Part shown: positions 3,776 to 55,737 of the stretch, piece after piece
Position numbering within the stretch: the stretch's first letter is position 1
Layout: every line of letters starts with the position of its first letter
Assembly (NCBI GenBank): GCA_044892525.1
Contig: CM097886.1
Span: forward strand, 120,962,001 to 121,026,000
Origin: Schmidtea polychroa
Taxonomy: Eukaryota
Direction of reading: 5' to 3'
DNA length: 64,000 bases
Program-made: the position numbers and the translations under genes
Notes under the pieces: model-generated
Database searches by the model: none
What the model saw: only the letters and a program-made list of their open reading frames with translations
Told to the model about the DNA's origin: nothing

Positions 3776-3888
3776 GGCCGGACATGGGTATTTGTTTTTA
3801 GTAGAGATTTTTGGGGAACCTTGCGAAACTTAACTATTGTATCAGGTTGATTTAACCATTTCAAATGTTTTTAGCGTTTTCAAGAACC

Positions 3889-4688
3889 ATGTCAGAAATA
3901 AATTTCCCTCCCCCGGCCCGAGACCGTGTTTCTCGTGCGCCGACAAAAATGCGCTACTGAAGAAGTCGGCCGAGTACATGGGATCGCTGGAGCGGAAAAT
4001 TGACACCTTAGAGGGTACAGGGTTTACTCCAGCGCGGATGAAAGAGGCTCAAATGAAGATCCTCAGACTCGAGCACTGTCGAGACAGTTTGCTCGAGGAA
4101 AGTCGGAGCCAGCGGCTCACCATCAAGGCACAATCTGCGGCTCTCCACCGCATCTATTCGAAAGCCGAATTGAAGGCCCGCATAGCCGAGTACCCCATCT
4201 TGGATAGGGGAAATCTATTTCCGCAACACCACGTGTTAATTCTTCCAGAGCCGGCTCACCCAACTTACTGTGATTCTCATGGCCCAACTGTCGTGTCCCC
4301 AGTCATTGCAGACGTCCTAAAGACACGAATACCGGTACCCGTACCTTCAATCGTGAATCCTGTAAACTCCTCAACTTCTCAGCGGGTAACCCAGACGGAA
4401 CCGCCCAAGAAGAAAAGGAAAAAACGACTGACACGCGCAGAAAAAACTAAAAAACGGCGTGAGGAAATTTCAGCTCTAGAAGCGACCTTGTTCGCCGTCA
4501 CACAGGCAAAAGTAGTGCCTCCTGCAGGTCCAGTTGCGTCGGTAAAAAACGTACTAGCCACAGTCTCTACCAACTCTCGACCCGATATTAGAGCACGACA
4601 TCAACGCGATGCTGGCAGAAGGGGACATGTAATTGCCAATACTCTACCCGAAGGGTTCACTATAAATCTTCTCCAACAGGGCACATGA
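3889..4688 (+). pseudogene. ORF-X copy A (unknown CxxC/coiled-coil/basic protein) with a 1-nt frameshift near codon 9
   Basis: ATG at 3889 follows acceptor TTTTCAAG. MSEINFPP-GPRPCFSC aligns with the start of copy B if one C is added to the C-run. Core EGTGFTPARMKE..ILRLEHCRDSLLEESRSQRLTIKAQS is shared with copies B, C and D. Confidence 0.8.
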
Positions 4689-8189: not shown

Positions 8190-8438
8190 ATTTTATCAAT
8201 CGAAGATCTTCCATCCAGAATCGCTAGACACATAAAATATTTTATATAAATCAACTTGTAAAAAAAATGTCGAATAAAAGTATATTCCTTCATACCATTG
8301 GCCAAATTTGTTGTGAAAGTAGCAATAGTTGTTGTTTGCAAAATCATTTCTTGATTCTTTTTCTAAGCTGTTGTTTCGGTAGTTGTTGTAACGGTTTGGG
8401 GAGTTGGGCCGGTTTCTGTAGTAGTAGGTAGTTATGTA
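8190..8438 (-). pseudogene. Ty3/gypsy gag C-terminal half (split by the foldback element)
   Basis: Asn-rich tract then YCYFHNKFG (CxxHxxFG knuckle typical of this gag class). In frame with 22658-23075 once the insertion is removed. Confidence 0.7.
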
Positions 8439-11400
8439 CACTCTAGATCCAGATACCCCCCCATAATTTTTTTTTAATTTAAATTTTTGTTTTAATTATC
8501 GATTATGCAATAATTTCATTTTTTGTTTTAATATCGATTATGTAATAATTTCATTTTTTGTTTTAATCATTGATTACGAAATTCTTGTTTTAATTATTGA
8601 TTACCTAATATTTTTATTTGTTTTAATCGTCGATTATGCAACAATTTAAAATTTTTAAACGTTGATTACGTCATTGGTTTTAATTTTTTATAAGAATTTT
8701 TTATGTCATTATACTTGAAATTTAATTCTATGTTAAATAAGACTATGATGTAATCAAAATTCTGAAATTTCATTTTTAGTACACCATTTTTAAATTTACA
8801 CATCTTTTTAAACAAATTGAGATATGTTCACTCAAACAATATATAGATAGAATTTTAATCTCTATAAAATGACATCATTATTTACTTCAAAGTCATAATC
8901 ATAACACCTTAAACAATGTATTTTTTAGCCAACTTTTACATATACACATATTTTCAACTTTAAAAAAAAACAAATTATTCATCTATACTTAACTCATAGT
9001 AAATAATTATATTAAAAGACATATTAAAAGATGTATTAAAAACTAAACATTTATTAAAATCCTAGAGAAATTCGATCACTATCTAATTTCCAAATCGTTG
9101 ATATGACATCTTTCTCATCTATTTTATATCCCTGTATTGACATATTTACAAACCAGCTTTCCCCATCTTTATATTCAATTTTATATAACAAAGACATATT
9201 GCATACAAAGACACACATGACTCATCATACTTTTTAAATATATTACGTTGCGGTATTTTAAAATTTAAATTTATTTTAAAAACTTGTTTTGACGGTTAAG
9301 TTGACAAAATAAAATTATTGCACATACTTTGCATTATCATATATAGTCTACCAGACAAGATATTCTGTTCCTCTAAGGGTAATGGTCACAAAGGTACTGC
9401 TAAAACTTTAACATATTATTACACACAATGTATAAAAAATCTTATTAGTGTCCACACATGCAACAAGTTATTATTATTATTATTATTATTTTCAAAGTAT
9501 TATAATTATATATAGTCCGAGTCTATCCGACAAGATATTCTGTCTCCCTATGGGTAATGGTCACAAAAGTAAAGGTCACAAAGGTAAAGGTCACAAATGT
9601 ACTGTTAAAAATATTCAAGACAGAACTTTAACAAAGAAATTCTAAATATTATACTTAAAATATACATTAAAATTTAATAACACATTGGGTAATGGTCGCA
9701 AAGGTAAAGGTTACTAATGTACTGCTCGCAAAGGTAATACTCACACTCAACATGTCGTAAATTATTTTCAAATACAATTTCAAAGTATTATTATTATTTA
9801 TTATTAAAATTAAAATTATTATTAAATTCTGACCAACTTAAATCAATGAAGGGGTAGGACAAAAATATATTACGTTGCAGTATTTTAAAATTTAAATATA
9901 TTTTAAAAAACTTATTTTGACACTAAAGTTTACTTATTTAACAAAGACATAATTATTGCACATGCTTTGCATAAATATTATTATTATTTTTTGAATTTTC
10001 AATATTTTCTTTCAAAGTAATAATACGCGCGGGAGTTATTATTATCATTATCATTATTATTATTATTGCAAATATTTCAAAGTAACACACGCGGGAATTA
10101 TTATTATTATTATTATTGAAAAACCTAAAATATTTTTAACATACACATACACAACCCATTAAACATTATTATTATTATCTATATTATTATTATCTATATT
10201 ATTATTATTATTGCAAATATTAGTAAAAAAAACTAACCGATTATTTACGCACATATACAACTCATTAAACTTTATTATTACTATTATTATTAAACCTAAA
10301 ATAATTTTTACACACTAGGTTATGGGGTAGAGAATTATTATATGTTTGCAGTATTCTGTATTTGCCTTTACATGAAATTTTCAATAAGGAGCGATAATTT
10401 ACAATTTTACACATACCTTGTTTAACATGGGTGTATATACTCCTAGTCTATCCGACAAGATATTCTGTCCTCCTATGGGTATTGCTAGCAAGGGTACTAC
10501 TCACATTCAACTTGTCGCAAGGGTATATTAATTAAGGTTAGTAAATAAAACTTATCACACATACTATTTTTAATAATTATTTAAACTATAAAAATCAAGA
10601 CAAGACAGGGCAAGGCAAAGTTTATGCAATTATTATTGCCAGGCCTAATGAGCAGTGACCAAATATCTGTGCCTGAAAGACACGGTGGATATTTGTTCGC
10701 GTCCACAAGGGTCGTCTGTGCCTCCCCCAAGTGGGGTCAGAAGAACCTGGGCATTATAGCTTTCCGTACGGAACATTACGCCTAGCATGAGTAGTCAACT
10801 ACCAGCACATTCGAAACGTATAATTTCAAAATACATGCGTCATTGGCACTATAACCAAATTAATTAATGTTTTCACTAACACAAATATATATTTACAGAG
10901 GCCTCCCACTAGTTGGACTACAACCGCCCACCACGACGATCAGCTTGTAAATATATATTAATTAAGGGATAAAGAGGACCCACCCAACCCTATTATATTT
11001 AATTTATAAATTTTTCTCGCTCTTCTGCTGGTAATCTATCTCAAAATTATCATCTCCATCGGGCCATTTGATAGTGATTTCATGGAATACGTCTTGCAAA
11101 TTGGACGGCGTCAACTATCATTGCTAAAATTTATATTGATTTAAAAGCAATTAACTTACAGATGTTATCTAACATTTTATCGTCACAAATTAAATTTTGT
11201 CTGACTATTAGGCAACTGTTATTTATGGTATACTTTTTCCTTATCAATTCCCACCATAAAACACAGATACCTAAATATAATATATATATTTTAAAGAATT
11301 AATTCATGTCTTACATTAATAATAATATTCTTCAGGTATGACGAGTACTTTACTTAATTGCTAAAACATCGGTTTTTCTTGACATTCGTTGAAAGTTTAC

Positions 11401-11928
11401 ATAATTTAAGTCTGATAATTCATGTTGAAGGACACCCACAATCAGATAATTCATTTAAAAAATCCGGAACTATAACTTCTTTAGTGTTTCACCATTGTGT
11501 CTGGTTCATCTTCTTCATAATCATATAATTCATGTTTTAATAAGAAATCTCTAAATCCAGAACATAAGTCTTTTAGTGTTTCACTATTTTGTCTGGTTCA
11601 TCTTCTTCATAATCATATAATTCATTTTCTTCATTACTAAGTAAAATAATTAAAATATTGTAGTAAATTCTTTATTGACTTACTTTATGGATACTAAAAC
11701 GAAAGAAATAAAGTTATTTGAAAAGTTTATTTAATTAATTTAAATTTAGTTATTTAAAAATATTTAAACAAGTTAGTTATTTAAGCATATTTAAACATTA
11801 TTATATAGTATAATTTTATATAATATTATAATATTATAATTTTATGTATTCTAAATTTATTAATAAATACAGTATAATTTTATATAATATTAAAATATTA
11901 TGTATTGTAAATTTAATATATCCTTCAT
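8439..11928 (+). repeat. Left inverted arm (~3.5 kb)
   Basis: Reverse complement of 18132-22657 along its length. Contains repeated ATCCGACAAGATATTCTGTC and GGTAATGGTCACAAAGGTA motifs and (ATT)n tracts. Confidence 0.9.
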
Positions 11929-12054
11929 TTAATTTTTTAAATTCAAAAATTTATAATGAAGCTTTTTTGAATTAAAATAATATTCTGTTAGTATTTCCAG
12001 GCAGAAAACAACGAAATCAATAATTAAATCTTAATTTTCATGTTATATATTTAG

Positions 12055-12931
12055 TGTTTATGTTTAAATTCAAAATAACGATTAATAAGTTTATTTCCAT
12101 CTACAGAGCCAGTTTTGAATAACAACAGTTTGTCCATGTCCATACCAGGAGATAATGTCCTCGTTGAACAACCCAATGGTCGCATCTCGGTTGATTGGGT
12201 AGAAAACTGCTTCATATCCGCAACAGAACGACTTATTATGTCGCAAGGCATTTCATATCCATGTTTATATCTAAATAGAGCTGCTTCCATTTGTGCACGC
12301 CATACTTGAGATCGATAATCAGGGATCATACCAGTCATATCATTTTCAGTCCTTTCAGTAATATTAAACAATCTTGTAGCTGAACTCTTCTCAATCATTT
12401 TATCTGGAACCTGTCTTTGTGTAGCTACTACATCCCAATAATTGCATCGAATATCCATGGAAAGCAATCCACCACATAAATTTGATATCATATTATTCTT
12501 TTCATAATTAACTGCAGCCATCTTTGATCGGCAGCTCATAATACAAAACGAAAAACCAAATCCATAAGAATTCAACAACTCGAGTTCCATTGCCATCTAT
12601 TCTAACTCTTTACCAAAATTCATAACCGAAAAATTCCATACCATTAACTCATCATTAACATTATCATCGATCACCATTAATTCACCATTTTCAACAATCC
12701 ATAAAAATTCCAAATTCTAAAATTCAAATTACAAATAACTAACTAACCATAAAAATACCTCTTGCTCGCGTCTGTGTGCGCACACAGCCAAGAACAAAGA
12801 AAAGAAAAGCGCACACAGACGCGAGGATCGGATTAAAATTTCCACATACTCCATTTTACGCGTCTGTGTGCGCACACAACCAAAACAAAGAAAAAAGCGC
12901 ACACAGACGCGAGAAAAATAATAATTCACCA
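12055..12931 (-). repeat. 3' LTR
   Basis: Direct repeat of 15905-16781 (offset 3850), identical by eye; preceded on the minus strand by a PPT. Confidence 0.92.
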
Positions 12932-12944
12932 TCCTCCCACCCTT
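12932..12944 (-). promoter_or_regulatory. Polypurine tract
   Basis: AAGGGTGGGAGGA abuts the TG of the 3' LTR. Confidence 0.8.
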
Positions 12945-13494
12945 GACACCTTAGTGTCAATCTCAAATCCCCATCAGCTTCTCCTTCTTCTTTTATACTT
13001 AAACATAATTTGAAGATACATTCCCGTGTCAGCTTATCCCTTTTCCCCTTCATTTCTTGCACTTCCCTCACCATTTTATCCCTTCTCCCCTTCATTTTCT
13101 GCATTATGGCTCAATCTCCAATAACCCTCACAAACCCATCTTTGTATTATATAAGCCGCCGCGCCACGCACCTTTTTTGAAAGATCATTGTGGATTCTCC
13201 ATCCACCATCGTTATACTCGGTCAAGCAGCTGTCCATGTTCAGTTTGTTTAGGTGTAATCTCTCCATTATTCTTTCTCCATTTTTCGCCAATTCAATATT
13301 CCACCCTTTTCCTTGTTGCATTTCATTTAGTGACCAGTTTTCACTTAATGTTTTTATAAGCATCCTACAAAGTCGTTCTTTGATTGCTTCGTGTTTCGAT
13401 TCCCCAATCGACCCCTTGTCTTTCATGTGCATCTTTAGAGGCGTGCAAACGAGTTCCAGTGATCCTTGTTGTTTGAAACTGTTCGATGATTCGT

Positions 13495-15594
13495 TCAATT
13501 TTTCCAAACTTCTTTGGCCCTTTGATCATTATCACGTACAGTTTCCCATGATTTCCCATATACCATACTGGTCTCCTTGTTTTGCCTCTCCCCTTTGGAG
13601 TCTTCTGCCCCTTTTACATTATCACGTTTTCCTTTTAGTCGATTAACTTCCCCTTCGTCGTCCAGCATATCATTAACCGCCGCCTCGGGAGTTAAATCCT
13701 CTGATTCTGGTTTGTCTTTTTCCCAATTACTCATCACTTCCGTTGTCTTCGGTTCCACAATTTTATCGTCGGATAATTTTATGATCTCACCAGCCCGGCG
13801 AGCCTCATCTTTCTTTTCCCCTGTATTCATTTTTCCTTGAACATTTTGTGTGATTGTCAAAACGTTAACTAATTCGTTAGTTCTTTCAGAATTGAATATT
13901 TGCCCATCTAAATGACTCTGAGCTCCTTGCTCTTCATTAGATGCCTTACTCCTGTCGCGTGGCGTGTCCTCAATTCCTCGAGATGCCCGTAACTCGTCAT
14001 TGAACATTTCAGTTACCGCAAAATAACTCTGAACCGTCCTCATTGATGCGTTTTCATTTAATAATTCGTTGTGTCTTTGCTTACATCCGGTAACCTCGCA
14101 GAAAGATTCTTTACGACATTCCTTGGCCATGTGATTTCTTTTGAAGCAATTCCTGCCTAGTTTCTTTTCTTCGATGACTCTCTTCCTTTCTGAAATTGTG
14201 AGTTGCTTAAACTTGTCACATTGGTCTAGGTAATGTTGACCACCACATTGTACACACTCTGATCTATAGCCGTTAGAGTTATTCACCTGTATAACCGTTC
14301 CACTTTTAACTCTGCCATCTGGTAGCCCCGTAAAATGCGTCCAACCTCCTGGATTGAAGCTTTCTCTTTCTCTAGACACACCTTCTACTCTTGGTCCATC
14401 ATAAGCCCTGGTGCATGGTTGAGTCCCATACACGACCTCGTTAGTAGACCTTAGGATCTCCGCTTCTTGTTGTATCCATCTTTTCAAATCCTCTATCGTC
14501 TCCCGCAATTCCTTTTCTATTTTCTCTTTCTTCCATTTATACACAAGATCCGTTGTTAACTTGCCCAAACACTTTTGAAAAAGATATCCAGTCTTTAACT
14601 CGGATTCTTTCCCAGTGGATTTAAATCGCACAGTGACTGTTTCTAATAATCCAACAAATAAGTCTAGATCCTTCAAATCTCCTTCTCGAATTGGCCTGAA
14701 CTGGTCCATCTCCTCTAACATTGATAAATATATCCTTTCATCTCCACCATATCGCCTATCCAACTTCTCTTTTGCCATTTGATAAGCCTCTGCCGAATAT
14801 CCTAGATTTTCAATTAACTTTAATGGCTCTCCATGAAGGTACTTGTGCAGGTGAAACATCTTTTCAACCTCATCACCTTCCGCTTCGTCAACACACGCCG
14901 TAAAAGCTGCTTTCCATGGTTCGTACTCTTTCATTTTGCCTTCAAAGACAGGTATTGTAATTTTCTGTAGACTTTCCAGTTTTCTTTTATGCACGGAATT
15001 ATTCTTCTGGGTGGTATCATCATTCACCTTTTCCTTTTTTTCCATAAAAGATTGATTTGCTTTTCTTTCCATCAATGCCCCAATTATTTGATGTTTTTCC
15101 TCGATCTCCTGCAGGTCTTTATCTAAGATTGCAGTGATGTCCAATCTTTGCAATTTTTCACTGATCGTTCTTAGATCTCTTAATTCTTCATCTAGACTCT
15201 CCTTTTGATCTTCATATTCCTCCAACCATTTGCTAACATCCTTACCCTTTATATCATTCAGAATCTTGTTTCTCCATCTCGTTAATTTTCCTTTTTTCAT
15301 TCTCTTTTTCCACAATTCTTCTTCTAAAATCTCTTCGTCATTGCCCCCGCACAGCCTGAGTGACAAATGAAGTGTCGACCCTACTTGTATCCTATAATCG
15401 TTCAATCTTCTTTTATTTTCTAACTGCTTTCCTGCGTATACTAACATTTGATAATTTACCGGAATTCCTTCTTTGTCCTGGATTTTTCCTTTTACATTTT
15501 CAATTGTGTCGTTCCATTCAACGTTAAGAGTAATTGTCTTACCAGTAAGAGTTTTGACAAATATTTGACTTTCCCATCGCAACTCAACACCCAT
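13495..15594 (-). CDS. Ubiquitin-domain/BEL-Pao gag fusion (part of the 983-aa open frame 13495-16446)
   Basis: Ubiquitin domain at 15343-15570 ([14 protein letters not shown]...IQDKEGIP...GKQLE...[12 protein letters not shown]). DUF1759-type gag (IPVFEG...WKAAF...[17 protein letters not shown]...LDRRYGG). Pao-type knuckles [13 protein letters not shown] and [10 protein letters not shown]. Confidence 0.88.
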
Positions 15595-15714
15595 TACCCC
15601 GCTCGTCCTCACCCTTGACTTAGCTCTGTTCTTTACCCTGTTCCCCTGACTTCCCCCTTTAAAAGAGTGCTGGGGCCCATAGCAGCACTTTCCCACGCTC
15701 GGTAGGGAAGGGAG

Positions 15715-15834
15715 GATGATTAATTTTACAAAAATATAATTCAAATAAATGAAAATAAAATTTACATAACCCTTGATGATTAATTTTACAAAAATATAAT
15801 TCAAATAAATGAAAATAAAATTTACATCACCCTT
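15715..15834. repeat. 60-bp tandem duplication in the retroelement leader
   Basis: GATGATTAATTTTACAAAAATATAATTCAAATAAATGAAAATAAAATTTACAT(A/C)ACCCTT twice; the length keeps the frame. Confidence 0.9.
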
Positions 15835-15886
15835 GATCAGCCGGGGCTGTCTCCACTGAAACATTGGTGCGTAGCCCCCTGAAGGG

Positions 15887-15904
15887 AACCACGCTCTGCT
15901 ACCA
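15887..15904 (-). promoter_or_regulatory. Primer-binding site (tRNA-iMet)
   Basis: TGGTAGCAGAGCGTGGTT, complementary to the ...CTCTGCTACCA 3' end of initiator tRNA-Met. Confidence 0.85.
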
Positions 15905-16446
15905 TGTTTATGTTTAAATTCAAAATAACGATTAATAAGTTTATTTCCATCTACAGAGCCAGTTTTGAATAACAACAGTTTGTCCATGTCCATACCAGGA
16001 GATAATGTCCTCGTTGAACAACCCAATGGTCGCATCTCGGTTGATTGGGTAGAAAACTGCTTCATATCCGCAACAGAACGACTTATTATGTCGCAAGGCA
16101 TTTCATATCCATGTTTATATCTAAATAGAGCTGCTTCCATTTGTGCACGCCATACTTGAGATCGATAATCAGGGATCATACCAGTCATATCATTTTCAGT
16201 CCTTTCAGTAATATTAAACAATCTTGTAGCTGAACTCTTCTCAATCATTTTATCTGGAACCTGTCTTTGTGTAGCTACTACATCCCAATAATTGCATCGA
16301 ATATCCATGGAAAGCAATCCACCACATAAATTTGATATCATATTATTCTTTTCATAATTAACTGCAGCCATCTTTGATCGGCAGCTCATAATACAAAACG
16401 AAAAACCAAATCCATAAGAATTCAACAACTCGAGTTCCATTGCCAT
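15905..16446 (-). CDS. Unknown LTR-encoded ORF, in frame with ubiquitin-gag (second copy 12051-12596)
   Basis: About 180 codons of protein-like composition inside the LTR. In the 5' LTR the frame stays open through the PBS and leader into gag; in the 3' LTR it stops in the TSD. Confidence 0.5.
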
Positions 16447-16781
16447 CTATTCTAACTCTTTACCAAAATTCATAACCGAAAAATTCCATACCATTAACTC
16501 ATCATTAACATTATCATCGATCACCATTAATTCACCATTTTCAACAATCCATAAAAATTCCAAATTCTAAAATTCAAATTACAAATAACTAACTAACCAT
16601 AAAAATACCTCTTGCTCGCGTCTGTGTGCGCACACAGCCAAGAACAAAGAAAAGAAAAGCGCACACAGACGCGAGGATCGGATTAAAATTTCCACATACT
16701 CCATTTTACGCGTCTGTGTGCGCACACAACCAAAACAAAGAAAAAAGCGCACACAGACGCGAGAAAAATAATAATTCACCA
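15905..16781 (-). repeat. 5' LTR
   Basis: Followed immediately on the minus strand by a PBS. Confidence 0.92.
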
Positions 16782-18131
16782 TTTAGGGTTGTGGCCATCT
16801 AATCGTTTGTTCTCAATTTTGCTCATTTTTATTCAAAACATTCAGGTGAGTTGTTATCTGGAAAGTTTCTTTTAGCTCAGCTTTGTTAAAACACTCACGG
16901 TATTCTTGAAAGACGTGACACTGGAAATAAATTAACAATGGGTGGTCATTCATACATGTTGTTAGTCTGAGCTGTCGATTTATTTTAGAAATAGGTATAT
17001 TAAAAATATTTAAGTTATCATTCAGTAAAATAATATAGTATTTTGAATATGTTTTAGTTAATTTATAAATAACAGTATTTTGATATATCAATAAAGACCA
17101 TATACTCCGAGTTTATCCGACAAAATATTCTGTCCCCCTATGGGTATTGCTAGCAAGGGTACTGGTCACATTCAACATGTCGCAAGGGTATATTAATCAT
17201 TTAGAAATTCTTAGGTAATTTAGTGAGATGATCAGAAATTCGTGAATATTTTAAATGTAACTTACAGAATTCTTATTTCGAGTGACTAATTTATTGGTTA
17301 ACTTTGTAGTCATTTAAAGCAAAAGGTAATTTATTCATCTAATGTTCGTTACAATAGTTAATAATATGAGAAAAATATGGTCATTATTCATTGATAATTT
17401 TAAATTCTTTATCATTTGGAGTAAATTTGTTTGAGGCAAAAATAGTTAAAGGAGTCATAATAGAAATATGGTTATCATTTATCCAATTAAGGGGCTTATT
17501 ATTTAGAAATATATATTATAAAGTAACAATTATTTTCTTATTTAATTAGATGATCATTAGACGTAATATATCTTTGCGACAAATTTAAGATGTTTGAGTA
17601 ACCAAAACATGGATATTTTGTGCGATAAATTTATGAATATTGGTTAATTTTGTTATTTTTAGTCATTTAAAATAATATTTAGCAAAGGTAATTTAGCAAA
17701 ATATCATTTATCCACCCGATAACAATATTCCTTCAATAGATTAACTGATATTCAACCTATTTAATTTCTGGAAATATAATTAAAATCATAAATTTCTTTC
17801 AATAAAGTTAAATTTTCTTTAGTTGTTTTCCAACTCTTTTAATTCAATAATTTTGTTACCGTTATCTTCATAATGAATGTCCGTCTTTAACATGTTAAAT
17901 AAAGATAATTTAAAGCAATAACCTTTGATATCAATTATCTCTAAATATTTCAAATATTTCATTGACAAAACCAAGTAAATTAGTCATTAACCCTAAACAC
18001 TTCAATAAAATCCTGGATAATTAATAGACTATTTCCCTTGAAACATTTCCAATAAGAACATCACCCATTTAAATATTCAAAACATTTCCATCCTAACCGA
18101 TCCCTCACCAAATATTTCTACCCCTTTAAAC

Positions 18132-20848
18132 ATGAAGGATATATTAAATTTACAATACATAATATTTTAATATTATATAAAATTATACTGTATTTATTAA
18201 TAAATTTAGAATACATAAAATTATAATATTATAATATTATATAAAATTATACTATATAATAATGTTTAAATATGCTTAAATAACTAACTTGTTTAAATAT
18301 TTTTAAATAACTAAATTTAAATTAATTAAATAAACTTTTCAAATAACTTTATTTCTTTCGTTTTAGTATCCATAAAGTAAGTCAATAAAGAATTTACTAC
18401 AATATTTTAATTATTTTACTTAGTAATGAAGAAAATGAATTATATGATTATGAAGAAGATGAACCAGACAAAATTGTGAAACACTAAAGGAGTTATAGAT
18501 TTTGGATTTAGAGATTTCTTATTAAAACATGAATTATATGATTATGAAGAAGATGAACCAGACACAATGGTGAAACACTAAAGAAGTTATAGTTCCGGAT
18601 TTTTTAAATGAATTATCTGATTGTGAGTGTCCTTCAACATGAATTATCAGACTTAAATTATGTAAACTTTCAACGAATGTCAAGAAAAACCGATGTTTTA
18701 GCAATTAAGTAAAGTACTCGTCATACCTGAAGAATATTATTATTAATGTAAGACATGAATTAATTCTTTAAAATATATATATTATATTTAGGTATCTGTG
18801 TTTTATGGTGGGAATTGATAAGGAAAAAGTATACCATAAATAACAGTTGCCTAATAGTCAGACAAAATTTAATTTGTGACGATAAAATGTTAGATAACAT
18901 CTGTAAGTTAATTGCTTTTAAATCAATATAAATTTTAGCAATGATAGTTGACGCCGTCCAATTTGCAAGACGTATTCCATGAAATCACTATCAAATGGCC
19001 CGATGGAGATGATAATTTTGAGATAGATTACCAGCAGAAGAGCGAGAAAAATTTGTAAATTAAATATAATAGGGTTGGGTGGGTCCTCTTTATCCCTTAA
19101 TTAATATATATTTACAAGCTGATCGTCGTGGTGAGCGGTTGTAATCCAACTAGTGGGAGGCCTCTGTAAATATATATTTGTGTTAGTGAAAACATTAATT
19201 AATTTGGTTATAGTGCCAATGACGCATGTATTTTGAAATTATACGTTTCGAATGTGCTGGTAGTTGACTACTCATGCTAGGCGTAATGTTCCGTACGGAA
19301 AGCTATAATGCCCAGGTTCTTCTGACCCCACTTGGGGGAGGCACAGACGACCCTTGTGGACGCGAACAAATATCCACCGTGTCTTTCAGGCACAGATATT
19401 TTGTCACTGCTCATTAGGCCTGGCAATAATAATTGCATAAACTTTGCCTTGCCCTGTCTTGTCTTGATTTTCAAGGTTTAAATAATTATTAAAAATAGTA
19501 TGTGTGATAAGTTTTATTTACTAACCTTAATTAATATACCCTTGCGACAAGTTGAATGTGAGTAGTACCCTTGCTAGCAATACCCATAGGAGGACAGAAT
19601 ATCTTGTCGGATAGACTAGGAGTATATACACCCATGTTAAACAAGGTATGTGTAAAATTGTAAATTATCGCTCCTTATTGAAAATTTCATGTAAAGGCAA
19701 ATACAGAATACTGCAAACATATAATAATTCTCTACCCCATAACCTAGTGTGTAAAAATTATTTTAGGTTTAATAATAATAGTAATAATAAAGTTTAATGA
19801 GTTGTATATGTGTGTAAATAATCGGTTAGTTTTTTCACTAATATTTGCAATAATAATAATAATATAGATAATAATAATATAGATAATAATAATAATGTTT
19901 AATGGGTTGTGTATGTGTATGTTAAAAATATTTTAGGTTTTTCAATAATAATAATAATAATAATAATTCCCGCGTGTGTTACTTTGAAATATTTGCAATA
20001 ATAATAATAATGATAATGATAATAATAACTCCCGCGCGTATTATTACTTTGAAAGAAAATATTGAAAATTCAAAAAATAATAATAATATTTATGCAAAGC
20101 ATGTGCAATAATTATGTCTTTGTTAAATAAGTAAACTTTAGTGTCAAAATAAGTTTTTTAAAATATATTTAAATTTTAAAATACTGCAACGTAATATATT
20201 TTTGTCCTACCCCTTCATTGATTTAAGTTGGTCAGAATTTAATAATAATTTTAATTTTAATAATAAATAATAATAATACTTTGAAATTGTATTTGAAAAT
20301 AATTTACGACATGTTGAATGTGAGTAGTACCTTTGCGAGCAGTACATTAGTAACCTTTACCTTTGCGACCATTACCCAATGTGTTAATAAATTATAGTGT
20401 ATATTTAAAGTATAATATTTAGAATTTCTTTGTTAAAGTTCTGTCTTGAATATTTTTAACAGTACCTTTGCGAACTTTGTGACCTTTACCTTTGTAACCA
20501 TTACCCAATGTGTTAATAAATTTGAGTGTATATTTAAAGTATAATATTTAGAATTTCTTTGTTAAAGTTTTGTCTTGAATATTTTTAGCAGTACATTTGT
20601 TACCTTTACCTTTGTGACCTTTACTTTTGTGACCATTACCCATAGGGGGACAGAATATCTTGTCGGATAGACTAGGAGTATAAACACCCATGTTAAACAA
20701 GGTATGTGTATATAGAATGTATGCATAAAATTGTAAATTATCGCTCCTTATTGACAAATTTCTGTAGAGACAAACACAGAATATTGCAAACATATAATAA
20801 TTCTCTACCCCATAACTTAGTATGTAAAAATTATTTTAGGTTTTTGAC

Positions 20849-20931
<83 letters not shown>

Positions 20932-21077
20932 GTAATAATAAAGTTTAATGAGTTGTATATGTGTGTAAATAATAGGTTAGTTTTTTCACTAATATATGCA
21001 ATAATAATAATATAGATAATAATAATAATGACGTTTAATGGGTTGTGCCTGTGTGTATAAATTATTTTAGCTTTTTC

Positions 21078-21122
<45 letters not shown>

Positions 21123-22657
21123 TGCCGTGCGTGTTAATACTTTGAAAGAAAATATTGAAAATTCAAAAAAATAATAATAATATTTATGCAAATCACGTGC
21201 AATAATTATATTTTTGTAAAATAAGTCAACTTTAGTGTCAAAATAAGTTTTTTAAAATATATTTAAATTTTAAAATACCGCAACGTAATATATTTTTTGT
21301 CCTACCCTTCATTGATTTAAGTTGGCAGAATTTAATAATAATTTTAATTTTAATAATAATTAATAATAATACTTTGAAATTGTATTTGAAAATAATTTAC
21401 GACATGTTGAGTGTGAGTATTACCTTTGCGAGCAGTACATTAGTAACCTTTACCTTTGCGACCATTACCCGATGTGTTAATAAATTTATGTATATTTTAA
21501 GTATAATATTTAGAATTTCTTTGTTAAAGTTCTGTCTTGAATATTTTTAACAGTACATTTGTGACCTTTACCTTTGTGACCTTTACTTTTGTGACCATTA
21601 CCCATAGGGAGACAGAATATCTTGTCGGATAGACTCGGACTATATATAATTATAATACTTTGAAAATAATAATAATAATAATAATAACTTGTTGCATGTG
21701 TGGACACTAATAAGATTTTTTATACATTGTGTGTAATAATATGTTAAAGTTTTAGCAGTACCTTTGTGACCATTACCCTTAGAGGAACAGAATATCTTGT
21801 CTGGTAGACTATATATGATTATGCAAAGTATGTGCAATAATTTTATTTTGTCAACTTAACCGTCAAAACAAGTTTTTAAAATAAATTTAAATTTTAAAAT
21901 ACCGCAACGTAATATATTTAAAAAGTATGATGAGTCATGTGTGTCTTTGTATGCAATATGTCTTTGTTATATAAAATTGAATATAAAGATGGGGAAAGCT
22001 GGTTTGTAAATATGTCAATACAGGGATATAAAATAGATGAGAAAGATGTCATATCAACGATTTGGAAATTAGATAGTGATCGAATTTCTCTAGGATTTTA
22101 ATAAATGTTTAGTTTTTAATACATCTTTTAATATGTCTTTTAATATAATTATTTACTATGAGTTAAGTATAGATGAATAATTTGTATTTTTTTTTAAAGT
22201 TGAAAATATGTGTGTATGTAAAAGTTGGCTAAAAATATATTGTTTAAGGTGTTATGATTATGAATTTGAAGTAAATAATGATGTCATTTTATAGAAATTA
22301 AAATTCTATCTATATATTGTTTGAGTGAACATATCTCAATTTGTTTAAAAGATGTGTAAATTTAAAAATGGTGTACTAAAAATGAAATTTCAGAATTTTG
22401 ATTACATCATAGCCTCATTTAAATTATTACATAATCGACGATTAAAACAAATTAAAATATTACGTAACCATAAAATAAAACAAAATTTTACGTAATCGAT
22501 GATTAAAACAAAAAATGAAATTATTACGTAATCGATAATTAAAACAAAAATTTTAATTAAAAAAAAACAAATTAGGGGGGGGGTATTTTAAAAATTTTAA
22601 AAAAATAAAAAAAAATATTTAAAAAAAAATAGGGGGGGGGTATCTGGATCTAGAGTG
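18132..22657 (-). repeat. Right inverted arm (~4.5 kb, with an extra ~1-kb internal tandem unit)
   Basis: Mirror of the left arm. The unit starting GACAGAATATCTTGTCGGATAGACTAGGAG occurs at ~19590 and again at ~20650. Confidence 0.9.
20849..20941. repeat. (AAT)n microsatellite
   Basis: About 30 AAT units; source of the spurious poly-N and poly-I ORFs. Confidence 0.95.
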
Positions 22658-23075
22658 CACATGGATCTGCAGCTGTAGTTTTGCCTGTTGTTTCCGTCTG
22701 ATGATTGGTTATGATTATCTGATGATTGGTTTGTGTTGTAATTGCTGCTATTGTATAGGTCTATAGTTTCGTTTGAATTGAAATTGTGCATGTTGTATTT
22801 CTCTTTTATTTCGGCTAGTTCTGCATTTATTTTTCTCTTTTCGACAATTATTTCGTCGAATTTGCTAATCAATGTGTTAATTAGTTGGTTTGATATTTCG
22901 TTTGATTCAGTGTTTTTGTTGTTTGTCTGGTTGTTGTAATTTGTTTTGTTGCTGTTGTAGTCTTAAGTGCTGCATATAGTTGGAGAAATTTCTTCATTTA
23001 TTTTATCTGCTGTCTGCTAGTGTTTCTACGTCCGAATTGCTGCTGACTGTAAGAATACGTCTTATTTCTGGTTGC
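22658..23075 (-). pseudogene. Ty3/gypsy gag N-terminal/central part
   Basis: QPEIRRILTVSSNSDVETLA..ADKI then an Asn/Thr/Gln-rich tract; joins 8438 in frame. Confidence 0.65.
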
Positions 23076-24594
23076 ATTGCTCGCATATGAAAATGAAAAG
23101 AGAGAAAAACGTCACCCTCACCGAGCATAAAAATAGAAATCTAGTATTGGAAATTCTAGAACCGGCTAAGTCCTACCATTTGAAGTGGGCAAACGAACCC
23201 ACATGGATCTTCAATGTGAATGAAAACGATTATAGGTCGTTCAAGCCATTCGTCCAGAACATCTACCCAAACCAGGAAAACAACCTAACATTGTTCGTAG
23301 TTTTGGGGTGGAGAAAATCCTTTGTTTTGTTTTAATAATTTTTCTTTTTTTTAGGATAAGTTTGTTTTAAATAATGAAATTAGGTGAGATGAAAGATTCA
23401 ACTAAAGATGAGAAAATAAAGTAAAAAGCACCAAGTAAAATAAAATATCATGAAAAACATCAAGTAAAACAAAGTAAGAAGTAGGGGTTTGGCCTTTGAG
23501 AGCCAATCACGATTTAAAATTTTAATTTTAGGTTTCAACCCTACTAGTTTTTGTCGGTGAACCATAAGTCAGTGAACGACTTGTCATGATACTTACATAT
23601 AAATAGATATCACTTATACATGAATGAAAAAGGAATAGAAAATTTTACGTCGACGTAAAATTATTTGGTTACTTCGTCTACACCGCCAACTTATTTTCAA
23701 AATTATTAGACTATCTCTAAATAAATCTTAGTCGATGCCTTAGATGTAATTGCGCTGGTGGGTTACAGGTAATCAACATTTTACCTCGTCGTGCTGTTTC
23801 CAGCGTAACCCAGAATACAATTATACATTCGACCACTTGGTACCCGTTGTGTAATCAACGTTGGTACTGTACCAAGAGTTTAAGTACCAGTAAAAAGTGA
23901 GCATGCATAGCATTCTCTAATTGTCTAGCACTCACTTGGATCCACGGACTGCCGATATAAGGCCTGTGTGGGATTTTCTCGGTCCTTCAGTTTCAGATTG
24001 TGTTGCCAAATGATCAGAGTTCATGCAGACATACGATTTAACATAATAATAAATACTAATTTTATTTATATCATGTATACTATCATAAAAGTTCGTGGTG
24101 CATCAGTTGGCAGCGATTCACTCAGGGTAACACTGTAACCTGTCGTATCCATCCAAATCATCCAGTTATTCGGTCAGGGTTTCATTTTCCAGCCTCTGCA
24201 GCCGATCTAAGGCTGCCTTGCCACTACAGAAGGCATCCGTCAGAGCCAGCTCTGTGTAGTTGATGAACGGATTTACTTTCGGAGTGACTGGAATCACATT
24301 CTGATAGGTCTACCAGATCCACCGAGATCTTAGCTGGATGAGCTCCTCCTTTCGGTCAAGACTGGTGGTGTCTTCAACCTCCACCTGGGTTGACTCCGGA
24401 ATTAGTTCTGTCGACAAGGGACCAACCTGTTCGTTTCTTCGTCTAGTGAATATATTCCTTGACGAGCCTACACCCATCACTTAGGTTTAACATTAACAAA
24501 ATGATATCCTAATTCTACCCCTGGATCAAAGTTAAACCAACTAACTGATCTGTTTCTTATACGTTGACGTTCAAACGTACTCTTACATTCTAAG

Positions 24595-26485: not shown

Positions 26486-29240
26486 TAAAGATTGGAATCG
26501 AGAAATCTCGTATCGGGAATTCTCGAGACTTGTATATTTTTTTTATGTCTTGTTTCTCGAGAAGTGAAAAAGGTTAAAAAACGAGATTCTCGATTTCTCG
26601 AGATTTTATTTTCAAGTCCCGAGAAGGAAACCTTAAAATATTTCCCCATAGAAAATTCTTATTTATAGAAAATTCCCCAACAAATTATAATTTTTGACTT
26701 ATTTAATAGATGGTATATAATAGATAGTATATATTTATCACTCGATCCATAATACTTTTATTAAATTTCGAAAACCAATACTTTCAAATTATACAATTTA
26801 GTACATTTTTCTGTAGTTGCTGTGATAGCAATTGTTTTAAAAGTGCACAAAGCTAATTTTGTAATTTTAATTCTATTATTAAATTATTATTATATATTTA
26901 TACAAATCATACCAGAAAAAATTTAAATATTTCGTAAGTATTGATAATTAAATCATTTACAATTACAATCACAATTACTTTATTTAGAACTTAAAGTAAA
27001 GGGCTAAAGATGTCTGAAAATACCAAACCAAATGAGTATCAGAATTGTTGGCTAGAATTTGAAAGAAGTGAAGACCGAAATATGGCAATATGTAAATATT
27101 GCAAAAGTGAAATTAATTGCAAAGGATCAACAACAACTGGATTACACCGGCATTTAACAGCAAAACATGGTATGACCAAGACTTTGCAGGCTGGAAATAT
27201 AGGTTGCAAACGTATGAGAAGCAGTGCTACTACGAGCATAAATAATTATTTTAAACCAAAAAGTACACAACCACAAAGTCTTGGGGAAATTGTTTCAAAA
27301 CTAGCAGCGTTCGACAATATTCCCATTCAAAAAATTTCAAAATGTGAATTTATTCGAAAAAGTTTAGAATTACAAGGATTTGTTTTACCAAAATATCCAA
27401 CGGATATAATGAATATAATTTATAAATATTACAATGAAAAAAAAGATGATATTGTCAATAAAATAAAACTAATAAAATCAAAAAATCAAAAAATTTCTTT
27501 AAGTATTGACGAGTGGACCAGTTTTAGGAACCGACGATATTTAAATATACATATATATTATAATGCAAGTGGTATGTCGGAAAATCTAGGACTAGTTCGT
27601 ATACATGGTAGCTGCCCGGCAGATAAAATGGTCGATTTAGTAAATGAAAAGTTAAATTCATTTAATATTAGTTTTGATAAAGATATTATTGCCACTACAA
27701 GTGATGGTGCAAGCGTTATGGTAAAATTTGGAACTTTATCACCAGCTTTGTTGCAGCTATGTTACAATCATGCTTTACATTTGGCAGTCCTTAAAATATT
27801 TTATTCAAATAAAAATAATGAACATGAACATTCTTCAGATTCTGATTCATCAGATGATGTTGAAGACAATTTATTTTCAGATGAAGATAATAATTTAACA
27901 CAGGAAACATTTTTATTGAATGATATAGATGATATAAAACTAACAATTCTAAAAATTCGAATAATTGTTAAAAAATTTAAAAATTCCCCTGTACGAAATT
28001 CTGTTCTTCAAAAATATGTAAATGAAGTAGAAAATAAAGATCTACATTTATTACTTGACTGCAAAACAAGATGGAATAGTATGATCACAATGATAGAACG
28101 ATTTTTAAGGTTGATTGAACCAATAAAAAAAACGCTAATAGATTTAAATTTTTATGATTTATGGGATAATAATTTTACTCTTAAAGCAAAAAATATTTTA
28201 GAAGCGTTAAAACCAGTAGAAATTGCTGTTGAAGCATTATCCAGACAAGACACAAATTTATTAACATCGGAAGGAATATTAAGATTTTTGTTCGAATCGT
28301 TGACTGAGCAGAGTACACATTTAAAAGCCGTATTACTTACTGAAATAACAGATCAAATTTCGAAAAGGAGAAATGTACCTTTAGTCTCATTAATTAAATT
28401 TTTAAATAATCCCAATTCCTTAAATGCTGATGCAAAAGATTTTTTCAAATCTGCTTCGAAAAATGAAATGTTAAAAGTAGCAAAATCTATTATGCTGAAA
28501 ATTAATAAAAATGATGGTGATGGTGAAGGAGCTGTTGTTGGTGTTGGTGATCATCCAAATAATTGTGAGGAGAATAATATTGAAATAATTGAAATTGATA
28601 AATCTGCTGAAAAAACATTAAAAGAAAAACTTGAAGATTCGATCAACAATTGTTTGGCAACAGCTGAAATAAAAACAAATGTAAATTTATTATTAAAGGA
28701 AATGAATTTATACGAAATAAATGGACAAATTTCCCAAAACTTATTCAAAATAAAAGAATGTTTACTGACTATCAGACCAACATCAACACAAAATGAAAGA
28801 AACTTTTCAACAGCAGTAAATATAGTAACTAAAAAACGAACACGTTTAACTGACAAAGCAATTGATGCACTTTGTTTTTTAAAATTTTATTTCACAAATA
28901 TCAATAAATAAAAAATATTATATTTGTTTTTGTGGTATATTTGGTATAATATCATATGATGTATTAAATTTTCTATTTTTGCTATATATTCTTTAGTTTT
29001 GTAGTGAATAGTGTTAGTTTTAATTGTGTTAGTTTTATTTGAATACAATTTTTTTCTTTGAAATTTTCTTGTTTTCTCATTTTTTATAAACTATTTCAGA
29101 TTCTTTAATTTCTCGGAAAATTTCCCGGGTCCTGAAATTTCTTGAACGAGACTCTCGCTTTCTCGAGAATCATAATATTGCAAAAAACGAGACTCTCGGA
29201 TTCTCGAGAAATTAAAAAAGTTGAGAAATCCCAATCTCTA
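26486..29240 (+). mobile_element. Full-length hAT element (Ac/ZBED-like)
   Basis: TIR TA(A/G)AGATTGG(A/G)AT. 8-bp TSD AATTAGAT/GATTAGAT. TCTCGAGA subterminal repeats. Confidence 0.92.
27010..28911 (+). CDS. Intact hAT transposase with BED zinc finger
   Basis: 633 aa with CKYC...HLTAKH BED finger, SLSIDEWTS, TSDGASVM, CYNHALHL, CKTRWNS and PTSTQNERNFS. Confidence 0.95.
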   Translation: MSENTKPNEYQNCWLEFERSEDRNMAICKYCKSEINCKGSTTTGLHRHLTAKHGMTKTLQAGNIGCKRMRSSATTSINNYFKPKSTQPQSLGEIVSKLAAFDNIPIQKISKCEFIRKSLELQGFVLPKYPTDIMNIIYKYYNEKKDDIVNKIKLIKSKNQKISLSIDEWTSFRNRRYLNIHIYYNASGMSENLGLVRIHGSCPADKMVDLVNEKLNSFNISFDKDIIATTSDGASVMVKFGTLSPALLQLCYNHALHLAVLKIFYSNKNNEHEHSSDSDSSDDVEDNLFSDEDNNLTQETFLLNDIDDIKLTILKIRIIVKKFKNSPVRNSVLQKYVNEVENKDLHLLLDCKTRWNSMITMIERFLRLIEPIKKTLIDLNFYDLWDNNFTLKAKNILEALKPVEIAVEALSRQDTNLLTSEGILRFLFESLTEQSTHLKAVLLTEITDQISKRRNVPLVSLIKFLNNPNSLNADAKDFFKSASKNEMLKVAKSIMLKINKNDGDGEGAVVGVGDHPNNCEENNIEIIEIDKSAEKTLKEKLEDSINNCLATAEIKTNVNLLLKEMNLYEINGQISQNLFKIKECLLTIRPTSTQNERNFSTAVNIVTKKRTRLTDKAIDALCFLKFYFTNINK

Positions 29241-29736
29241 GATTAGATGACCTTACTTAGCAGTAATTTGTGTTAATGGTAAATTTATTTTGTTTTAACT
29301 GATAAATTGAATTAAGTGCAAATAAAGATAAATAAAATATTCAGGTTAATAACAATTTCTTTTCTGATAATTTTGTTAAAGTAAGATAAATAAAATAGTC
29401 AAGGTAATAATAATTTTTCAAATGTAAATTTCTAAATAACGTTTTCTTCATTGACAAAATAAGACAATATATTTTTTTTGTGTCATAATAATCTTCAAAG
29501 GTAAATTACACATGAGATAATTAGTAAAGGAAATGATGAGATGTAATAAATCAAATTTTGTTTGTGATCAAGTCTCCGTTCCCAGCGCTCTAATGTTAAT
29601 CAACTCAATTTAATACTAGTAGGAGTGATGATATCGTATAAGGGGATTGGTAAAATGACAAGTATTATCAAACTTTCTTCTGCATCCTATTCCGTCACAT
29701 TGTTATTTTAAATTATCATACCAACTTATCTTCAGA

Positions 29737-30462
29737 ATGTGTGAACCAAGCTTGCCGCCAAAAGGTCTGCAGTCATGCTTCTCATGCGCTGGTAAAAATG
29801 CAGACATAAAGATGCTGCAGGAGTACAATGGGGCTCTTAAGAAGCGGATCGAATATTATGAGGGTACGTGGTTCTCCCCACCACAAATGAAGGAGGAGCG
29901 AGCGAAAATATTGCGGCTGGAGCACTGTCGTGACAGTCTCCTGGAAGAAAGCCGTTGCCAACGGCTGACCATCAAAGCCCAGTCGGAGGCTCTCCACAAG
30001 ATCTATACTGAGAAAGAAATTCTACAAAGGGTTCGAGAATACCCGGTCATTGATGGGACTAATGTCTTCCCAGTACATCACCAACAAGGAAATCCGCAAC
30101 CCTCTAAGTCTCATTGAAGTGGGCATGGAAATGATTTCCCACCTCTCATCGTCCCAATATAGTCGGGATCTTCTAAAACAAATGACACCTCGACGGTGAA
30201 AGTCATCAATTCTGATTCTATGCCCAAGAAGCGGAAACGACCATCACGGGCCGAGAAAAACCAGAAGCGAAGGGATACCATCGCTGCTTTGGAGGCATCT
30301 CTGTTCGCTGCCCAGTCGTCTAGGAAACGAAGTCCAAAGGTTCAAGTACCTGTCTCAACCGGGGATTTTCGAATTATCTCCACTGAAATGTGTCAACTTC
30401 GAAAAGATGCCCGGCTACAGATGGATATAGACGCCCTGTTAATGGAGGGCGAGATGCAGTAA
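29737..30462 (+). pseudogene. ORF-X copy B (disrupted around 30060-30200)
   Basis: ATG follows acceptor CTTATCTTCAG. MCEPSLPPKGLQSCFSC...EHCRDSLLEESRCQRL. A second fragment carries KKRKRPSRAEKNQKRRDTIAALEASLFA and DIDALL. Confidence 0.85.
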
Positions 30463-39895: not shown

Positions 39896-40255
39896 AACTA
39901 TAAATTAGTACCAACTTCAAAGCACAATCTTTCCGGATAGAAATCAAATAAAGAAAAAATAACCGTATGTTTATGTTCCAATGCGTCTGGAAAACATAAA
40001 CTGCCACCGTTTTCCATTGAAAAATATGTGAGATCACGTTTCAAAAATATTAATGTGAAAAGTATTCCTGTTAATTTCGTTCTCAAAAATCAAAAAATCG
40101 AGCCACTCGTAATTCAAAACGAGTTCGAATTACACGCTCTAGTCGCCGAAATTGAGCTGGAGATTAGGATATTAGGAATTTTAGTAATGTTTTTCTGTAA
40201 CAAGATGTTAGTAAAGAGTTCACAGTACCAGAAAGTAGAAAGGAACGATTCTAAC

Positions 40256-40380
40256 GTAAGTCCTTCTATCGGCCGTATGGGACCCGCGAGAAATATTATA
40301 TGTGAGTAGTGTTAAGACAGACGCTCATCTGCCCTTTAATTTTTCGCCGACGTTGAACAGTACCATTCTGATCGTCGTCG
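40256..40380 (+). ncRNA. Structured RNA motif M4 (degenerate)
   Basis: GTAAGTCCTTCTATCGGC; GAGTAGT..GCTCATCTGCCCTTTA; GCCGAC; CAGTACCA. Confidence 0.6.
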
Positions 40381-54464: not shown

Positions 54465-54606
54465 GACTTAAGTCCTTCTATCGGCAGTCGAAAAGTGGAA
54501 AAGTCGAGTTAGGGTGAAGGAGTAGTCCTAAGGTAGGGGCTCACCTGCTTCATAGTAGTTCACCGGCATGGCACAGTACCAACATGATGTAAATCATCTG
54601 TCATGT
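54465..54606 (+). ncRNA. Structured RNA motif M5
   Basis: TAAGTCCTTCTATCGGC; TGAAG-GAG-TAGT-hairpin-GCTC-ACCTG-CTTCA; CATGGC..GTCATG stem enclosing ACAGTACCAAC and ATGAT-GTAA-ATCAT. Confidence 0.72.
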
Positions 54607-54607
54607 T

Positions 54608-55737
54608 GTGGAAATAATCGTGTGGGTTTTTGGTCAGCGGTCCGCAGAATATGCTGTAAGGTCATTCTTTTCGGACTATCATCCTCTAGTAATTAGTAAC
54701 CTCTTGTTGACCCTGCCGACTACCCAACAGTATAATGATATCCATAATGATGCCAATACTGTATCACCTCTTCATCCCGTGTCCTGCTTAGGCGATCATC
54801 CCTCTTCACCTCAAGTGGCCGCTCCAGGCAAAACTGAAAAATCGCAGAACAAGTTCTCTTCAAATTTCCAATTCCGTTGCGAAATGAGGAAACTCAACAA
54901 CTGGAAAAAATTCAAGGTAGACCCGAGTCATAAACACCGCGTTCGGGACCTTAACACCGCTCTTTCTCTTTAAACAGACCTGCCTCAGGATCCGGCTCTC
55001 TTGTCAATGCTCCTACGATATCGTGCAACGACACTGTGTATCTTACACCTGCTCTTTCACCCCCTCTTCTGTCTGCAACCATTACGGCTAGTGCAGCCAC
55101 CGACGTCATCTCACCCCAAATTGTTCAAAAGCTCATCCATACTCCAATTTTATCTCCTAACACAGATACAACTAACAACAAGCATATAACACCACAAACT
55201 CAAACTTCACAGACCCCCTCCTGAACACAGACCTCTTCCCAGAACTCCGACATCACTCATGACAACAATACACCACCGCGCAAAGTGACCATGGCCAACT
55301 TCTTTCTAACAATCAAACGACACAACCAAGCCACAGTCAACTTATATTCGTCGCCAACTGACAGGACAAGCAATAACACCCCGCCCCAATTTCATCAACC
55401 CAAACACTAACATGATGGCTCGGACCACCTCTTTTCTCTACCGTGACACAAATCGAAATCACCTGATAGCTCTATGTCCACTGTGAACCCTCAACAAATA
55501 AAGAAACTTCATCACAAGTCAAAAAACGCCCATAGCCGCAGATCATACTTTAACGATAAGCGTAATATCAATAACAGAATCGACAAAATGGAAAACGCCC
55601 TACATAAAATTGCCCACCATCTCACTAAACTGGCCTCTGACAAATATGGCATGGACGCCACGCGCCTGTCCCCAACGCACCCCAGCCTCTCCACATCTTA
55701 CCAGTTCGTTAATGAAGACTCACGCGTCGACTGCTAG
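54608..55737 (+). pseudogene. Degenerate Pro/Ser/Thr-rich ORF of unknown origin downstream of M5
   Basis: Locally GC-richer chain of short same-strand ORFs; no diagnostic motif recognised. Confidence 0.3.

Follow-up and report, generated by a model that had tools for sequence, protein, structure and literature searches.

A foldback-type element with multi-kilobase inverted arms inserted in a gag relic of Schmidtea polychroa

Two halves of a gag gene are separated by about 14 kb of mostly non-coding, inverted DNA in a stretch of 64,000 nucleotides from Schmidtea polychroa (GenBank assembly GCA_044892525.1, contig CM097886.1, positions 120,962,001 to 121,026,000 of the forward strand; this whole stretch is called the window, and all coordinates refer to it). 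The locus raises the question of what kind of element lies between the two gag halves, where exactly it ends and how its arms came to be several kilobases long. An initial annotation made from the letters alone had described a discrete inserted unit with inverted arms of 3.5 and 4.5 kb, a 2-bp target-site duplication (TSD) and no visible transposase. These features were borne out: self-comparison and global alignment gave arms of 3,492 bp (8436-11927) and 4,528 bp (18133-22660), the ends are symmetric, the gag flanks are colinear and a six-frame Pfam reading gave no transposase. On balance, we consider it probable that the element is a non-autonomous cut-and-paste foldback transposon whose arms grew in the way described for Galileo elements. 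The features that define it are the following.

8436 to 22660, no strand: whole element with the favoured boundaries, 14,225 bp, or 9,493 bp once a nested Pao element and one copy of its TSD are removed
8439 to 22657: whole element with the boundaries of the initial annotation
8436 to 8462, plus strand: left core terminal inverted repeat (TIR), 27 bp with a single mismatch at position 3, perfect over 8439-8462
22634 to 22660, minus strand: right core TIR, the 27-bp partner of the left one
8434 to 8435, plus strand: left AT target-site copy in the favoured model, with the right copy at 22661-22662
22663 to 23092, minus strand: upstream part of the gag relic, matching residues 157-247 of protein P0086
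8301 to 8433, minus strand: downstream part of the gag relic, matching residues 271-305 of P0086, up to the zinc-knuckle start

The two ends share a perfect inverted repeat of 24 bp (8439-8462 and 22634-22657), and the terminal 18-mer occurs at two sites only in the window, even with 3 mismatches allowed (0 of 100 shuffles). With its long, internally repetitive and non-coding inverted arms, the element falls into the structural class of foldback-type TIR elements, 'foldback' being the name of a shape and not of a lineage. Six-frame translations of the spacer and right arm, with stops read as X, gave zero Pfam matches at E values up to 1, so that the element appears non-autonomous as far as Pfam can tell.

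The interrupted gene was recognised through its right flank. Used alone as a phmmer query against 1.84 billion representatives, the right flank piece returned a single protein, P0086 (E 3.3e-4), a 320-residue DUF7041 protein which we take to be of the Ty3/gypsy gag type. P0086 also matches the left flank, which was absent from the query, and this shows that the flanks are consecutive and colinear parts of one gag gene. Neither flank piece alone matched Pfam. Nothing in the relic corresponds to the first 156 residues of P0086, and the match ends where the zinc knuckle begins, at about 8300; in between, the reading frame is shifted near 23015 and broken by a stop near 22963. The gag is thus best described from its sequence as a broken relic, an already dead gene carrying the insertion. 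Of the in-frame insertion with restored frame that had been proposed, the two gag halves and the kept codon phase stand, but the gag itself is not intact. In further protein searches the left piece matched 0 of 5 candidates among longer proteins, an Atlas search with the right piece gave hits of 0.75 only, and 187 pattern matches to P0086 in metagenome contigs yielded 0 confirmed cases.

The exact boundaries were compared by enumerating 8 symmetric models with TSD lengths of 0 to 9. Ends at 8436 and 22660 (GTRCAC...GTGYAC) constitute the sole model among the 8 with a perfect duplication of at least 2 bp (AT/AT), and they keep the codon phase. Ends at 8439 and 22657 (CAC..GTG), taken with a TSD of 2 bp, likewise keep the codon phase; the two TSD copies differ, however, with TA on the left and CA on the right (1 of 2 bases), and the match is not improved at any length up to 9. 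The palindromic empty site initially reconstructed at these boundaries does not hold as such: it assumes a mutation. Both models require one mutation each, at the same site. They differ in the number of codons left at the break, one under the AT model and three under the CAC model. When X was placed at the break, the alignment to P0086 scored 62 with one codon and 52 with three, one codon being the best choice in 3 of 3 gap settings, and the best gapless diagonal of each flank on P0086 gave the same one-codon spacing. In 500 reference shuffles this margin was equalled in 11 and the score in 0. A second homologue, P0087, scored 54 with one codon and 43 with three. The CAC model needs in addition 3 mirror-symmetric bases around its core, which are found at 204 of the 6,129 TA sites in the window (3.3%); a Tc1-type target preference would make such symmetry likelier (PMC2577343, part on target motifs).

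The ends therefore need to be stated with care: judging by the duplication and the homologue spacing, they probably lie 3 bp further out than initially annotated, at 8436-22660, with a perfect AT duplication. Among the three options left open by the initial annotation, the AT duplication is favoured by the gag homologues, and with GTRCAC ends the CAC signature of CMC/EnSpm and the TA signature of Tc1/mariner would no longer apply. Other candidates were discarded. Blunt TGT..ACA ends keep phase and spacing, yet fit none of the duplication rules tested; TAC..GCA ends with a 4-bp TSD require two mutations; and the motif ATGTRCACT, found at 6026 and 58980 in the window, does not mark element ends there.

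The arms are layered, and are made of the following parts.

8463 to 8732, plus strand: left subterminal zone, 6 GATTAY-cored repeats of about 27-36 bp each
22423 to 22633, minus strand: right subterminal zone, 4 GATTAY-cored repeats plus another C-run block; identity with the left zone 85.5%
8733 to 11927, plus strand: left inner arm, with units A, B (recombinant) and C, AAT microsatellites and an AT-rich imperfect palindrome at its inner end
18133 to 22422, minus strand: right inner arm, with units A, B1, B2 and C, one unit of about 1 kb beyond the left arm
9529 to 10453, plus strand: left unit B, a B1/B2 recombinant with its switch between 9670 and 9797

Identity between the arms was calculated by zone and amounts to 85.5% in the outer 300 bp or so, 97.4% in 8733-8969, 99.9% in 8970-9666 and 99.2% in 9678-11927. 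The impression by eye of near-identical arms is thus right for the inner arms and wrong for the outer part, whereas the many subterminal repeats that had been noticed are indeed there (6 left, 4 right, as listed). The zone 8733-8969 differs from 8970-9666 (Fisher P = 0.0014) and from 9678-11927 (P = 0.017), and the latter two do not clearly differ from each other (P = 0.09). Over the whole of the inner arms (8733-11927), 24 substitutions were counted in 3,181 sites, 17 of them transitions, besides several indels. In the left subterminal zone, 87 bp (8646-8732) have no partner in the right arm.

Each arm unit is headed by GACAAGATATTCTG, which occurs 4 times in the right arm (A, B1, B2, C) and 3 times in the left. 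At the 61 ungapped sites that distinguish B1 from B2, left unit B carries 19 B1-type bases, 42 B2-type bases and 0 private ones; all 19 B1-type sites lie at or before 9746, and 41 of the 42 B2-type sites from 9797 onward. Since left unit B is a B1/B2 recombinant without private sites, one unit of about 1 kb was lost from the left arm by recombination and not gained by the right one. The loss measures 1.09 kb. At the inner arm ends, where arm homology stops, AT-rich imperfect palindromes are found (11803-11921 and 18110-18302), and they may represent a template-switch site.

Between the arms lies a short spacer, into which an LTR (long terminal repeat) element has inserted.

11928 to 12054, no strand: left part of the unique spacer
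16787 to 18132, no strand: right part of the unique spacer, containing an extra arm-unit head at 17100-17197
12055 to 16781, minus strand: nested BEL/Pao LTR element, with TSD TTTAG, 877-bp LTRs and a 983-codon frame

Without the Pao element the unique spacer measures 1,473 bp, in agreement with the value of about 1.5 kb given initially. The extra arm-unit head at 17100-17197 is a copy at 93% identity and is oriented as in the left arm. The two Pao LTRs (12055-12931 and 15905-16781) are identical at 877 of 877 positions. At the rate of difference seen between the arms (24/3,181), zero LTR differences would have a probability of P = 0.0013, so the Pao insertion postdates the last large-scale homogenisation of the arms. 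A segment of proteasome subunit alpha type-6 is present in both LTRs (residues about 6-138 of the mammalian chain, E 1e-28). The 983-codon frame (13495-16446, minus strand) begins in the LTR and spans this proteasome alpha-6 piece, ubiquitin and a DUF1759 gag, and Pfam found no pol domain in it. The Pao element is very young, with two captures from the ubiquitin-proteasome system.

Two features go beyond the initial annotation, the recombinant left arm described above and a fragment of 7SL RNA present in both arms.

10901 to 10944, minus strand: left 7SL RNA 5' Alu head, 44 bases (RF00017, E 2.7e-5 on 751 bases, 28 bits)
19118 to 19161, plus strand: right 7SL RNA 5' Alu head, 44 bases (RF00017, E 9.4e-5 on 751 bases, 26.1 bits)

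The heads face outward in both arms, and the right one had an E value of 0.0019 in a 15.5-kb search. Their scores of 26-28 bits compare with a gathering score of 70 for RF00017; the S domain is absent and the full RNA of about 300 nt is not present. The fold of the Alu 5' domain (positions 1-44) is recovered, with 13 of 14 consensus pairs on the left and 12 of 14 on the right, and the unpaired exception common to both heads is unpaired in the Rfam consensus too. The Alu domain of 7SL RNA is held by a loop-loop contact. Here the loops could pair at all 4 of 4 positions in one of the four registers tried, with U-A where the consensus has C-G. An AT-rich 14-bp inverted repeat closes the head, which then comprises about 76 bases in all. 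Between the two heads 2 of 44 sites differ, against 0.75% elsewhere (P about 0.04), and one of these differences breaks a pair; this gives no indication of selection. No Pol III (RNA polymerase III) A or B box was detected inside the element by pattern search, no hammerhead or other RNA family near the heads at E values up to 10, and no tRNA or tmRNA in the window. Most likely, the 7SL head is passive cargo acquired before the arms were duplicated. Beside it stands an island of 48% G+C (10639-10838, mirrored at about 19225-19425) in arms that are otherwise at 20-30% G+C. The island has no Pfam match and no credible Rfam match, and a 386-base GC-richer region folds no better than its shuffles (z -1.4 and -0.7).

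The favoured reading can be spelled out as a series of events. A DDE transposase encoded elsewhere would bind the 27-bp TIRs and the subterminal repeats, and would have cut an AT dinucleotide within the decayed gag with a stagger of 2 bases to insert the element. The AT duplication makes a PHIS/ISL2EU-related transposase our best guess for this helper. The native ends may have been asymmetric and only about 300-500 bp long. By analogy with Galileo, repair of a break at one end would have been templated by the other end and copied on into the interior, giving arms of several kilobases; the orientation of the spacer copy of the arm-unit head, which is that of the left arm, is a hint that the right arm was copied from the left. 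The left arm later lost its unit of about 1 kb through recombination between the diverged B1 and B2. A patchy conversion from arm to arm may account for inner arms that stay at least 99% identical beside drifting outer zones, and the entry of Pao into the spacer was the latest event.

Several observations weigh against this account. The analysis covered one copy, so that mobility in the foldback form and the TSD rule are presumed, and the direction of arm copying is read from one 98-bp spacer copy. The AT model has its price, a mismatch at TIR position 3. The homologues that favour its spacing are 85% identical to each other, and they are only about 40-45% identical to the relic. The break falls in a linker of low complexity, close to several indels, and we hold the AT model with moderate preference for this reason. 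The ends begin with GT in a target T|AT|G, whereas ISL2EU elements are reported to have GG ends and a target A|AT|T. Finally, CAC ends with a 2-bp TSD are a known signature of CMC elements, in the excerpts cited below.

This last point leads to the reading in which the same foldback has CAC...GTG ends at 8439-22657 and a mutated 2-bp TSD (TA/CA), and was mobilised by a transposase of CMC/EnSpm or Tc1/mariner type. We judge it unlikely, though it deserves more credit than the other alternatives. Its TIR is perfect over 24 bp, the codon phase is kept, and CACTA ends typically carry subterminal repeats. CMCT lineages have, for the most part, CA..TG ends with TSDs of 2-5 bp (PMC12730594, in part), and animal CMC miniature inverted-repeat transposable elements have CAC..GTG ends and 2-bp TSDs (PMC6004678, in part). 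The implied 8-base target shares 6 of 8 positions with the palindromic Sleeping Beauty/Tc1 motif (motif table of PMC2577343), but the TA expected of a Tc1/mariner TSD is present on the left side only. Against CAC ends stand the agreement of the TSD at 1 of 2 bases, the uncommon 3-bp mirror symmetry, and two extra codons, compared with either homologue, precisely at the break. A different origin of the arms, which we find rather improbable, would be a composite: a small TIR element, corresponding to the outer 300-500 bp, would have been invaded by a gene-less Polinton-type palindrome, or such a palindrome would have taken the place of its interior. On this view the long arms and the 7SL head would come from a Polinton-type family instead of having grown in place, and either boundary model would fit. 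The identity steps at 8733 and 8970 (the former zone differing from the latter as given above) agree with this, and units A and B begin with AG after the palindromic hexamer ATATAT, as would be expected of a 6-bp Polinton TSD lying at the centre of a hairpin. However, 8 sites in the left arm show a palindromic hexamer followed by AG, so this sign does not discriminate; the segment 9236-9334, outside unit A, resembles the interior of unit B at 80%, so that A is not a clean boundary; and the left-only 87-bp stretch contains a subterminal repeat and is not flanked by a direct duplication.

Still more speculative, and improbable in our view, is a group of TIR transposons, not yet described, which duplicate AT, have GTRCAC ends and would have taken over arms and 7SL Alu-head module from a Polinton-ended palindrome family. 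The gene-less foldback chassis would thereby have swapped its ends, exchanging a Polinton integrase for a cut-and-paste transposase, and would have kept the SRP9/14-binding RNA module as working cargo. An assembly fold-back artefact, or a local inverted duplication without transposition, is very unlikely indeed. In its favour, the best public sequencing run, holding 0.71 of the sampled words, may be the source data. But the arms differ by the substitutions and indels counted above and by the 1.09-kb recombination loss, the symmetry ends at the TIR without entering the flanks, which are consecutive parts of gag, and a chimeric read would yield near-identical arms including flank. On these grounds we regard the structure as real and not as an assembly fold-back. 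The non-autonomous foldback transposon with arms grown in place remains the reading that we prefer.

Searches in other collections were made with pieces of the locus. With the left flank and arm, 20 of the 24 sequencing runs listed, from 7 studies, hold part of the query and 2 hold half or more; these partial word matches are uninformative on structure, habitat and expression, and none of the runs listed that hold it is an RNA run. The terminal 19-mer had 0 matches in metagenome contigs, and the unit core and the 7SL head 0 each in viral contigs. For the terminal 14-mer, found at 115 viral loci, the best alignments from the terminus extend over only 14-20 bases and were set aside as chance.

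Other mobile DNA is present in the window, whose Pao and hAT content points to an animal host. An open 638-codon hAT transposase with zf-BED and dimerisation domains lies at 26995-28911 (plus strand), its best relatives being 51% identical and Rhinolophus bat proteins 42%. Further remains of DNA transposons are held at 508-2971 (hAT in several frames), 48532-50181 (open 549-codon hAT), 51865-53592 (a transposase-like frame split by one stop, without Pfam hit) and 39941-40309 (a DDE_1 fragment). Three related frames (3834-4688 and 29659-30117 on the plus strand, 60075-60833 on the minus strand) have a C-F-S-C motif and a common C-R-D-x-L block, and none matched Pfam; the segments 4011-4157 and 29860-30006 are 73% alike as DNA. 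The three frames appear to form a dispersed repeat family. Finally, the end of a frame at 54593-54973 (plus strand) resembles the basic helix of a basic helix-loop-helix exon, without any Pfam hit.

This single copy records several stages of arm evolution: asymmetric native ends, inverted copying, loss of a unit, patchy homogenisation and a later nested insertion. Its end signature may be that of a transposase group not yet classified. Should CAC ends turn up in other copies, the element would be an ordinary CMC or Tc1 derivative, unusual in size. If Polinton-ended and 2-bp-TSD families of one genome both palindromise and share the 7SL module, the tendency to form palindromes would belong to the host genome and not to one superfamily.

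How does the element compare with known systems? In the openly searchable literature, a scope that excludes Repbase Reports and most subscription journals, no title deals with such an element or with a 7SL head in a DNA transposon, and the part of PMC6431247 on giant eukaryotic transposons and planarian Burro elements describes no such foldback. ISL2EU elements duplicate AT in the target A|AT|T and have TIRs of 6-259 bp that usually begin with GG (PMC4482050, in part). Our element resembles them by its AT duplication (one copy, favoured boundary), its animal host and a short core TIR within that size range. It differs by arms that far exceed any reported TIR, and by lacking the THAP/helix-turn-helix-DDE transposase and the YqaJ frame (no Pfam hit in six frames); the latter absence is expected for a non-autonomous copy and does not speak against an ISL2EU helper. 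ISL2EU is therefore a candidate superfamily only: the AT duplication fits it, and the GG ends and A|AT|T target are lacking. With the CMC/CMCT elements (EnSpm/CACTA, Mirage, Chapaev, ESTA), as characterised in the excerpts cited above, our element shares CAC..GTG at positions 4-6 of the favoured ends, a 2-bp TSD and subterminal repeats. However, if CAC is the terminus, the two TSD copies disagree and the spacing relative to the homologues is poorer, and the six-frame Pfam reading held no trace of a CMC transposase with its C(2)C and H(3-4)H motifs. Spy elements make no TSD and insert between AAA and TTT (PMC4122938, in part); blunt models keep the codon phase here, but the flanks are not AAA and TTT. 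Polintons (Mavericks) have 6-bp TSDs (PMC8969392 and PMC10045372, in part), and a 6-bp TSD was found at 0 of the 8 symmetric boundaries.

The closest likeness in architecture is to Galileo, a P-superfamily element of Drosophila whose TIRs, in the portion of PMC3573991 describing them, extend by recruiting internal sequence and by changes in tandem repeats, chiefly in non-autonomous copies, the longest (1.26 kb) being in gene-less copies. As in Galileo, the arms described here are long and internally repetitive, with a length that shifts through gain or loss of repeats and internal recruitment. They are 3.5 and 4.5 kb long against about 1.26 kb, and no transposase was recognised here where Galileo has one of P type. 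The TSD of Galileo is 7 bp, against 2 bp here. The FB (Foldback) elements of Drosophila provide another structural likeness, with long modular inverted repeats and little or no coding sequence; they differ in being MULE-related and in making long TSDs. The arms are about three times the longest TIRs compared (1.26 kb in Galileo, 1.47 kb in Spy, 1.04 kb in PIF/Harbinger and 0.26 kb in ISL2EU, as given in the excerpts used). The element belongs to a known structural kind, the foldback, and is unusual in its size and in the signature of its ends.

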